Shown: positions 51,453 through 54,368 of the stretch, piece after piece | How positions within the stretch are numbered: position 1 is the stretch's first letter | How the letters are laid out: the number at the start of each line of letters is the position of its first letter | Assembly: GCA_964016885.1 (NCBI GenBank) | Contig: OZ024743.1 | Coordinates: 314,774,001 to 314,838,000 of the forward strand | Reading direction: 5' to 3' | Source of the DNA: Eledone cirrhosa | Taxonomy: Eukaryota | Length of the DNA stretch: 64,000 bases | Position numbers and translations under genes: made by a program | Notes under the pieces: model-generated | Seen by the model: the letters and a program-made list of their open reading frames with translations, nothing else | Database searches by the model: none | What the model was told of the DNA's origin: nothing

Positions 51453-51499
51453 TGCTCCGAAGAATCCAAACCTCGGTTTGGAGGAAACAGCTGTAAGCA
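51453..51499 (+). ncRNA. Type I minimal HHR motif with core CCGAAGA
   Basis: TGCT CCGAAGA A TCCAAAC-CTCG-GTTTGGA G GAAA CAGCTG TA AGCA. Confidence 0.75.
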
Positions 51500-52186
51500 C
51501 AATAATGTTTTGAACAGTTCTTTGATTCATTTATTTCATATATTTCATATTTATATATATATATGTATTTATATATATATATATATATATATATATATAT
51601 ATATATATATATATATATATATATATATATGTATTTATATATATTTATATATATATGTATATATATATATATATGTATTTATATATATATATATATATAT
51701 TTATATGTATATGTATTTATATATATATATATACACATATATATATACATATATATATATATACATATATGTGTATTTATATATATATATATATATGTAT
51801 TTATATATATATATTTATATATATATATTTATATATATATGTATTTATATATATATATATTTATTTATATATATATGTATTTATATATATATATTTATAT
51901 ATATATATATATATATATATATATATATTATATATATATATATATATATATATATATATATATATATATATATATATATATATATATATACACATATATA
52001 TATATACATATATATATATATATATACACATATATATATATATACATATATATATATAAATATATATATACATATATATATATATATATATATATATATA
52101 TACTCATATATATACATATATATACATATATATATATATATACACATATATATATATACACATATATATATATACATATATATATC

Positions 52187-52513
52187 AATGAAATGGTGCA
52201 TTGTGAATGAAGACTGCTCAAACTGCTGCGGGTTAATCGATTCCAATGGCAATAATTGATGTGTGTGCTATATTAAATATATATATATATATATATATAT
52301 ATATATATATATATATATATATACATAAATATATATATATTTAATATACATGAATACATATATGTTTGCCACATACATAATGACAATAACACACATACTC
52401 AAGCGTTCATATGTAGTTTGGATGTCGATCAAGAACGTCAATTATTGCCATTGAAATCGATTAACACGCAGCAGTTTGAACGAATGTCTTCATTCACAAT
52501 ACACCATTTCATT
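52187..52513. repeat. ~75-bp inverted repeat (52187-52259 / 52438-52513) around a TA-containing spacer
   Basis: aatgaaatggtgcattgtgaatgaagac...ggcaataattga and its reverse complement. Confidence 0.85.
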
Positions 52514-53329
52514 TTAAAAACTGATACATATTGGTTTAATCTTCCATCTCTCTCTTAAGTGACGCTCACATATACGGGATCAAATTCACATATGATATCC
52601 GAAGCGACCCTTGTAACGATCTACCGTTTGCCATTTAACGTTTGGCAAATATCGGATCAGATCCTGTTACAAGGCAGTCTCTAGCATGACCATCCATTAG
52701 TATGACAACATCTCAACACATTGCATTTTTACTGAATAATGCAGGTATTTATTTATTTGCAGTTTTATTTAGTATTATATAATTGTTTTATTTTTATGTA
52801 TTATATAATTTTTTTATTCTTTTGTTTTTTGTTATTTCATACTAGCGGGTATTAAGTGCATCATGTTCTTCCAGCTAATGTGTTTATGACAAGATATTGA
52901 TTACTTTTTGTTTCATTTTTTTTCTTCTTCACCGTTACCTAAGACAGCATGTGCCAAGGACACAGACAACGACATGTATGGAAACGGCAAACATTAGCAT
53001 ATATTTATGTATAACATCAGAGAAGGACAACTTGGAAAATATTTAGCATTTTATCTATAGTAAATCATTCACCGGAAAGCCCATCCTACAGGGACAAACA
53101 AGTGTCACAAAGAAGCACACCTTCATGTGTTACATGCCACATTATCACTCTTTCTCCATCATCAGACATGTTATGTTCTTTCAACTAGACCACGTGGCAT
53201 TATGAAACTCTTTGGTTGCAAACGAATCAAATATTAAAAATATTATTATATTATTATCATCATCCACTCAGGAATGTATTTACGTATCCGCTATGTTTGA
53301 GCGAAAAGAAATTGTGTTTATATATATAT

Positions 53330-53930
53330 ATATATGATACATCACTGATTCTTTGTTTCCTTATATTATATTATATTATATATATATATATATATATATA
53401 TATATAATATAATATAGGAGAAAAAAGAATCAATGTTGCATCATATACATATTAAATTACGCATTACACATGTTTCATTTGTCGATCAGCTCCTGGAACG
53501 ATCGATTAATGATGGATCCTGACTCTGGAATAGGAAGCTCCTAAGACGTGTGTTAACATGTAGACTCACGTCTAAGAGTGGACGGATATTTATCTTGATT
53601 CATTATTTTATCCTGCCACAGACTCTGTTAAAGGAATGCGTTATCATCGCATTCAACCAGTTAAGTTGTATTCGGGAAATCTCTGTTGGGGCCTGGCCTA
53701 GAACTCAGCAGCTATAACATAATGTGTGGTAGTATAAAATAATGAATCGGGAAACCACTCTTAGACACAGGTCTACATGTTAATACATACCTGAGGAGCT
53801 TCCGATTTCTGAGTCAGGATTATTAATCGATTATTAATCGATCCTGACTCTGAAATCGGAGGCTCCTTAGGTATGGGTTCACATGTAGACTCGCATCTAA
53901 AAGTGTTTGGGTAGTTATACCGATTCATTA
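53330..53930. mobile_element. Multiply inverted pLTR-like remnant (same family as 18510-18665)
   Basis: Three ~110-bp copies of gatcctgactctg...catgtagactc...gattcatta in alternating orientation, plus inverted tails around (TA)n. Confidence 0.8.
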
Positions 53931-54104
53931 TATATATATATATATAGTATTAAGGGTACTATTTATGGTTATGTATGCAATAAAACCTTTAATATATACA
54001 CAAACCCTAAATAGTGAGAGATAGTCATTAATTACTATCCTATTACCAGTAAGATAAATAGCTCAATGTAATAACATCAGCTGTTTTACAGAGCAGTTAT
54101 ATAG

Positions 54105-54368
54105 AGATTACAGTAATCAAAGTTCAGTTTAAGTCATTTATTTGCTTACAATTGTTTCCTCCAAATCGAGGTTTGGATTCTTCGGAGCAACTATTTATAA
54201 CATACTTGACCTCCTTTTCAACCCAAGAGACACATTTATGTGTCTCTTGGGTTGAAAAGGAGGTCAAGTATGTTATAAATAGTTGCTCCGAAGAATCCAA
54301 ACCTCGATTTGGAGGAAACAATTGTAAGCAAATAAATGACTTAAACTGAACTTTGATTACTGTAATCT
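54105..54368. repeat. Perfect palindrome with 131-bp arms and a 2-nt loop
   Basis: Near-identical peptides on both strands in the ORF track; abuts (TA)n. Confidence 0.95.
54283..54331 (+). ncRNA. Type I minimal HHR motif with core CCGAAGA (mirror copy 54142-54190 on -)
   Basis: TTGCT CCGAAGA A TCCAAA-CCTCGA-TTTGGA G GAAA CAATTG TA AGCAA. Confidence 0.78.

Follow-up and report, generated by a model that had tools for sequence, protein, structure and literature searches.

The window analysed here, a 64,000-nucleotide stretch of the 3.0-Gb genome of Eledone cirrhosa, contains two hammerhead-like motifs, A and B, each lying in a 5'-truncated copy of a Penelope-like element (PLE) and each carrying C at position 4 of the core (C4) in place of the normally fixed U. 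Both follow a common layout of stem I, CCGAAGA, A, a 7-bp stem II, G, GAA, an 8-nt palindrome, A and the return strand of stem I, with a stem I of 4 bp and a predicted cut after GUA. The palindrome that makes up stem III is ACAGCTGT in motif A and ACAATTGT in motif B. An earlier sequence-only reading had described the shared CCGAAGA core, the GUA site and the hammerhead fold, all of which are borne out, and its list did not include a third copy on the opposite strand. The features concerned are as follows.

51453..51499, plus strand: motif A, hammerhead-like; stem I 51453-51456/51496-51499, core CCGAAGA 51457-51463 (C4 = 51458), A 51464, stem II 51465-51482, G 51483, GAA 51484-51486, palindromic stem III 51487-51494, H17 = A 51495, predicted cut after 51495
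54284..54330, plus strand: motif B, hammerhead-like; core 54288, stem III ACAATTGT, predicted cut after 54326
54143..54189, minus strand: third copy, same sequence as motif B; core 54185
50828..51542, plus strand: 3' end of a subfamily A PLE, 5'-truncated, 715 bp, 96% identical to full-length copy L032
53929..54373, both strands: subfamily B insertion of two 5'-truncated head-to-head copies, minus arm 54235-53929 with tail, plus arm 54241-54373; (TA)n flanks

The hammerhead-like motifs and their host element

The copy containing motif A is flanked by (TA)n tracts and ends approximately 46 nt beyond the predicted cut site. Motif B and the minus-strand copy form the opposite arms of a perfect fold-back of ~135 bp per arm, and both arms share one private mutation that disrupts the base pair closing the loop of stem II. 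The subfamily B insertion is predicted to form a single long hairpin that would hide both motifs, and the fold-back would mask them if transcribed through. A genomic search with the family pattern returned 4,230 matches and none in the reversed control, indicating that the pattern shared by motifs A and B is not due to chance, and a structural descriptor applied to 800 kb gave 48 matches, with 1 in reversed and 0 in shuffled controls. An Rfam scan of the window gave 0 matches at the gathering score; given that U4 hammerhead-like motifs in the window were missed as well, this is not a consequence of C4. A PDB sequence search likewise gave 0 matches.

Full-length units of 4.17-4.20 kb consist of direct motif pairs enclosing an 832-codon frame, in which a reverse transcriptase (RT) is followed by a C-terminal GIY-YIG endonuclease, with the signature YRDD then VIY..YVG. 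Of the four units fetched, three are intact and the other carries a frameshift. The whole frame is kept, at 98-100% identity, in ~67 of 150 scored RT matches (hand count), which argues that the element amplified recently. Pfam gave no significant match on the 832-codon protein; among 42 aligned members it identified GIY-YIG in 9 and RVT_1 in 1. Motifs A and B and the minus-strand copy belong to the type I minimal hammerheads and sit in the pseudo-long terminal repeat (pseudo-LTR) of this Penelope-like retrotransposon, which is active and has Hydra-clade protein motifs.

Judged by its protein motifs, the element appears to match the Hydra clade as defined by Craig et al. 2021 (PMC8557442); the trees built here cover relatives from this genome and from metagenomes. 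The DKG motif reads DKT (ADKT at 114-117), and the N-terminal RWK motif is RWR, with K as its third letter in 23/42 and R in 16/42 aligned members. The linker CxCx5C is CNCRANRTC, and CxxC (CNLC) and CxH (CQH) lie near the end; the endonuclease lacks CCHH and has one non-conserved C within GIY-YIG. The C-terminal GIY-YIG, DKT, RW(K/R), CxCx5C linker, CxxC and CxH are shared with Hydra-clade elements, as are (TA)n targets, tandem and inverted insertions and a type I hammerhead near the 3' end (PMC8557442); here too the element inserts into (TA)n and occurs in partial tandem as well as inverted arrangements. Several of the Hydra-clade hammerheads listed there also have an ACAG..CTGT or ACAA..TTGT stem III and a GUA site. 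The element departs from the clade in its unit size (4.2 kb as against generally under 3 kb), in its tail (~164 nt as against the 30-40 nt described for PLEs), in a stem III that is an 8-nt palindrome without loop letters and in its C4 core (PMC8557442). In that paper the size below 3 kb and the canonical hammerhead are descriptive traits rather than protein diagnostics. Two other placements were considered. A Naiad PLE, which would have overturned the statement that Naiads lack hammerheads, is ruled out by an endonuclease that is C-terminal rather than N-terminal and by DKT rather than DKA, and a Neptune or Nematis PLE by a CxCx5C rather than CX2-5CxxC linker and by the lack of CCHH in the endonuclease. 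A single-protein metagenome scan and a scan of viral contigs found nothing.

Position 4 of the core and constraint on the fold

With the family pattern left open at position 4, U occurs in 36 of the 4,230 exact matches and C in 99 of the first 100 listed, A and G not being counted separately; C thus replaces the normally fixed U in ~99% of thousands of copies. The U4 copies are spread across subfamilies, and 4 of 30 of their loci combine such an arm with a C4 partner, which indicates that it is these copies that are sporadic. In 59 near-full-length copies the upstream core is CCGAAGA in 46 of the 46 readable cases. At 51458 itself no letter other than C was present at the 5% level in contigs of sequencing runs X1, X4 and X5, the three of four runs checked that cover the position (X6 does not), and X1 and X4 may derive from the source organism. 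The runs listed as containing the sequence did not include any of RNA. These counts support C4 as the consensus of the active master elements, as the sequence-only reading had proposed, and exclude a CTGANGA family in which the flagged copies are sporadic mutants.

A comparison within the A/B/C group covered nine lineages, four of them single copies, and used a search anchor that spanned the right half of the motif and not C3-A9. The 11 letters of the core are the same in every lineage, and this holds for C4 too. Of the 8 free hammerhead positions and the 20 columns of the 5' flank, by contrast, not one is invariant, and in the 3' flank 7 of 20 columns are; identity is 39% at free positions within the 47 nt and 32% in the 5' flank. 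C3-G8, G5, A6, A9, G12, A13, A14 and A15.1-U16.1 are the same in 9/9 lineages, and H17 is A or C only, never G. The three-way junction of stems I and II with a palindromic stem III is present, and C stands where the type I minimal hammerhead has U4. The A.G juxtaposition that closes stem II in both window copies had been noted earlier as a shared feature. It occupies the place of the G10.1-C11.1 pair and is A/G in subfamilies A, B and GT; elsewhere it varies (A/G, C/A, T/A, C/T and T/T occur among lineages) and, given this variation in the letters flanking stem II, it is not a conserved feature.

Pairing of the named structure was found in 94.8% of cells, compared with 28-43% in slid controls. 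Three pairs changed on both sides, and the covariation score was equalled by 3 of 500 shuffles, a figure inflated by relatedness. The double change in stem III (CAGCTG versus CAATTG), which had been taken to retain self-pairing, does so, and the genome-wide counts agree: the middle letters in the first 100 of 5,623 matches are AT in 47, GC in 32, GT in 21 and AC in 0 (hand count), and the mispaired AC form accounts for 20 of the 5,623 genome-wide. The G.U form is the expected bridge between palindromes A and B, which points to pairing in the sense RNA, albeit along one evolutionary path. The computed energy of motif A is -33.7 kcal/mol as a double hammerhead and -8.9 as a monomer. Variant PLE hammerheads that cleave as dimers have reportedly been described by Lunse et al. 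in 2017.

Since C4 lies within a CpG, loss of this CG by CpG decay would be expected, as the sequence-only reading had argued. CpG transitions are indeed 1.5-3 times those at other C/G sites (6.3%, 2.3% and 2.8% versus 2.0%, 1.1% and 1.8% in three families), but the effect is mild and the observed/expected CpG ratio of the window is 0.91, indicating little depletion.

A broad descriptor applied to 80 evenly spaced 10-kb stretches of the genome (800 kb) matched 82 U4, 15 A4 and 6 C4 motifs, with 2 matches in the reversed control. A narrow scan of 800 kb (48 matches: 43 U, 5 C, 0 A/G) had suggested that position 4 accepts pyrimidines only, a notion rejected once the broader scan found an A4 family. 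Descriptors fixed on CUGANGA would undercount PLE hammerheads, given that 21 of 103 well-formed C3-G8 motifs in 800 kb have C or A at this position. The earlier claim that canonical searches miss C4 holds for the '^cuganga' core search of Craig et al. 2021 (PMC8557442), but a CYGANGA descriptor is already in use, with C/T degeneracy reported for deep-sea RNA viromes (PMC13481778), and Rfam missed U4 motifs too.

Published PLE hammerheads differ at this position. The 26 Hydra rows (25 families) of File S2 all have ctga cores, and many have U/U in the place of G10.1-C11.1 (PMC8557442). The metazoan PLE minimal hammerheads of Cervera and De la Pena 2014 (PMC4209133) resemble the motif in their short stem I, long stem II, extra letter after A9, palindromic stem III and proposed action as dimers, with low activity in vitro in their case; their consensus, CUGANGAH with a highly conserved G10.1-C11.1, is one from which the present motif departs in both U4 and that pair. 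A core variant reported there is U3-A8, and in the available alignment the rows are U4, two 'ccga' matches falling outside the core. The same substitution is known from a viroid, in which U4C lowered activity in vitro considerably and retained infectivity (Ambros and Flores 1998, as cited in PMC3088659). There it is a rare variant of one RNA pathogen, whereas here C4 is fixed in thousands of copies and in several diverged lineages. In the literature searched, this viroid U4C and the CYGANGA descriptor were the only position-4 core variants found, and Lunse et al. 2017 may report some. As judged from the sequences, fixed C4 is a genuine change to the core of a familiar kind of ribozyme, carried by a familiar kind of element, and is unmatched in that literature.

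Among 77 metagenome Hydra-type loci the best motif is CU in 46, UU in 1, CC in 1 and absent in 29, with none in the reversed control; on one contig (L300:2927) a well-formed C4 motif lies upstream of a Hydra-type open reading frame (ORF) whose downstream motif is U4. In a tree of 23 proteins, 8 rows of which have no assigned core and from which the short fragments of family C (described below) and of locus L244 were excluded, the elements of this genome form one clade. On the best tree, explaining its six C4 rows takes 2 changes. A single origin of C4 is compatible with all well-supported branches and is present in 34% of bootstrap trees, so that several independent origins are unsupported; in a FastTree of 52 rows the group containing the C4 rows has a support of 0.105.

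Insertion junctions and a proposed function of the C4 core

The role of the hammerhead in PLEs is stated to be unclear by Craig et al. (PMC8557442). It is suggested, with slightly better than even confidence, that the C4 motifs are slow, dimer-dependent and possibly protein-assisted self-cleavers in the pseudo-LTR of an active Hydra-type PLE. A tandem transcript would carry two motifs 4.2 kb apart, which could pair through the palindromic stem III into a double hammerhead, and a minority of RNAs would be cut after GUA, perhaps with the assistance of the element's own protein. The start of reverse transcription would lie 46 or 210 nt beyond the downstream site, with uncut or rejoined RNA as the template, and C4 would be maintained by selection in its structural context, beyond mere inheritance. 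Of 17 terminal copies, 15 stop either 46-47 or 210-211 nt beyond the downstream GUA; subfamily A copies (e.g. L032-L036) have two 3' ends, +46/47 and +210/211 relative to the predicted cut, and the stretch between them is the tail of ~164 nt. The PAc Poseidon element of Anolis has a similar arrangement, with two RT start sites defining the end of the body and the tail, insertion mainly from uncut RNA and no reads ending at the cut site (PMC11167929). Its hammerhead cuts only with the protein of the element and is dispensable for insertion in vitro. PAc differs in belonging to the Penelope/Poseidon clade and in that its protein-dependent cleavage was shown experimentally (PMC11167929).

Several points count against the proposal. 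One is that cut RNA has left no clear trace in the genome. The upstream predicted cut site is read through in 49 of 59 near-full-length copies and, given that copies run through it, the insertion template was uncut or rejoined RNA. No 5' end falls at the cut site in 30 RT-anchored loci, and 4 of the 59 near-full-length copies (60 fetched, 1 unmapped) have theirs within ~10 nt of it. In a junction count read by hand, in which 13 of 84 junctions were set aside as indels and 30 were rechecked by script, 10 of 71 5' ends lie at the site (Poisson p 0.01 against a flat mean), as against 3 of 69 in a U4 control (Fisher p 0.08). The control was the 15938/42736 family, also read by hand with 30 rechecked, for which 31 of the first 100 of 1,109 were set aside. 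Within the range tested, each of the two AT-rich tracts has 6 junctions per position, and AT microhomology accounts for the ends at the site. Cut RNA is thus at most a minor source of insertions, and 5'-end junction counts do not separate active from inactive cores. In three fold-backs (G000:C7:16447114, C4:311886329 and C10:25359113) both arms start within 1-2 nt of the predicted cut site; these are possible traces of cut RNA, and symmetric fold-backs occur at other positions too.

The motif itself provides further points on the same side. It is without the G10.1-C11.1 pair that opens stem II, and stem III is weak in its G.U form (-3.4 kcal/mol). Invariance at position 4 alone is modest evidence, since the same is true of 7 of 48 unconstrained columns, and four of the nine lineages consist of one copy each. 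When a type III hammerhead was mutagenised pairwise, every single or double change to its CUGA region gave low activity, the C-G swap excepted (PMC9901934). Finally, a sister Hydra-type family has A4, with 20,082 exact matches and A in 100 of 100 listed; taken with the U4 sister of family D (below), this raises the possibility that constraint on position 4 is merely loose in this genome.

A non-cutting motif, in which the fold and palindrome are kept as a structural handle for RNA dimerisation or for protein binding near the RT start while position 4 has been released, is a serious alternative, albeit on the unlikely side. It would accommodate the high success of both the C4 and the A4 families, the constant copy ends with read-through of the upstream site, the generally low activity of core mutants (PMC9901934) and the finding that catalytically dead hammerhead mutants showed no drop in insertion in vitro (PMC11167929). 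A handle would nevertheless have no need of G8, G12, A13, A14, A15.1-U16.1 and H17, all of which obey the rules of cleavage in nine lineages; the well-formed motifs of the genome are mostly U4, as the 800-kb counts indicate; and the protein-binding region proposed for PAc lies in the first 172 nt of the ORF (PMC11167929). It is improbable that the motif is a neutral relic in which the ribozyme was lost to U4C in a single ancestor and the core letters agree through recent common descent. The single origin of C4 compatible with the tree would suit such a relic, as would the closeness of subfamilies A, B, GT and GAA (end branches 0.02-0.07), but the free positions and 5' flank have fully diverged around an invariant core, which already weakens this explanation. 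Moreover, changes in stems II and III are compensated, the mispaired stem III intermediate never became a subfamily, and C4 lies within a CpG that mutates faster than other C/G sites.

Constraint at the level of DNA, with CCGA and the palindrome serving as protein-binding letters of a pseudo-LTR promoter or an endonuclease site, is very improbable. PLE pseudo-LTRs do hold promoters (PMC6765202) and an 8-bp palindrome could bind protein, but a double-stranded site would treat the G.U form and its mirror image alike, and the sense-RNA G.U intermediate makes up 21 of the 100 listed while the DNA mirror image makes up 20 of 5,623, again along one evolutionary path. Given that insertion uses uncut or rejoined RNA, a weak ribozyme such as the slow self-cleaver proposed here would cost the element little and may preserve its template. 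It is conceivable, but rather doubtful, that C4 goes beyond this and is a selected attenuator, by which an old Hydra-type branch damped its hammerhead or made it protein-dependent so that most RNA stays whole and a fraction is cut. Were that so, PLE hammerheads would tolerate or prefer other core letters and, with the A4 family, would offer a series of natural alleles (U, C and A) at a site regarded as invariant. Of particular interest is that an element still amplifying, and present in many intact copies, has a core change known to reduce the activity of model ribozymes while keeping all other core rules. A comparison of native and U4 versions in the presence of the element protein would directly test whether cutting helps or hinders these transposons.

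Related and unrelated motifs elsewhere

The sequence-only reading had also pointed to CCG-type cores in other families of the window. These and one further Hydra-type feature are listed below.

29081..29127, minus strand: family C hammerhead, decayed; core CCGATGA at 29123
41505..41656, minus strand: family D stub; C4 core at 41631, stem II ~60 nt, family stem III ACAATTGT
55931..56081, plus strand: second family D stub, decayed; core CCGTCGA at 55955; 80% identical to 41505-41656
12581..12587, plus strand: CCGAGGA, a private variant within a fold-back repeat; excluded as a hammerhead core
26259..27110, plus strand: Hydra-type fragment; endonuclease-region remnant 26259-26806, then a hammerhead-like motif with A4, CAGAAGA at 27044

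Three of the cores named earlier (29081, 41549 and 55952) are indeed decayed hammerheads, of families C and D that are mostly C4, but the fourth is not: the fold-back repeat family at 12581 reads CCGAGGG in 31 of 33 and is without stem I pairing. Nor can these sites be counted as several independent confirmations, since the copy at 29081 is 70-77% identical to subfamily B and is a relative by descent of the flagged copies. Family C has the CCGATGA core in 31/37 rows, with N7 = U, H17 = C and a compensated stem II pair, and family D has CCGAGGA in 31/35. The rows of both are the best matches to a C4 query, a choice that skews them towards C. No ORF could be linked to family D, which has a U4 sister family of ~75% identity (window 18511-18661; L140, L204 and L065). 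A hairpin-rich relative of that sister family occupies 53420-53930, with CTGAGGA at 53791. The fold-back repeat at 12520-12610 is abundant (1,223 first-look candidates) and has a perfect central hairpin.

Motifs of the A4 family (CAGAAGA, a 4-bp stem III and a 9-nt loop) lie in the window at 27044 (+), 8174 (+), 29335 (-) and 7579 (-), and also in L139, L242 and L245. Further C4 cores, whose halves lie 79-96 nt or more apart on account of a very long stem II and which have an ACA..TGT stem III, are found in L099, L108, L244 and L124, the first three of which sit behind Hydra-type ORFs. Hydra-type 3' motifs in L153, L137 and L115, low-scoring matches with a long stem II, resemble U3-A8 covariants. 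Other repeat families contribute minimal hammerhead-like motifs with the canonical U4, some of them decayed, which lie in the window at 15938 (+), 42736 (-), 19019 (-) and 6348 (-). At L148:6619-9719 (minus-strand coordinates), tandem units of ~310 bp each carry a canonical U4 motif (11 matches) in an arrangement resembling a non-LTR retrozyme. Between motifs A and B, the raw sequence also contains an unrelated repeat in an inverted pair (~52168-52260 and 52440-52515) around a (TA)n tract.

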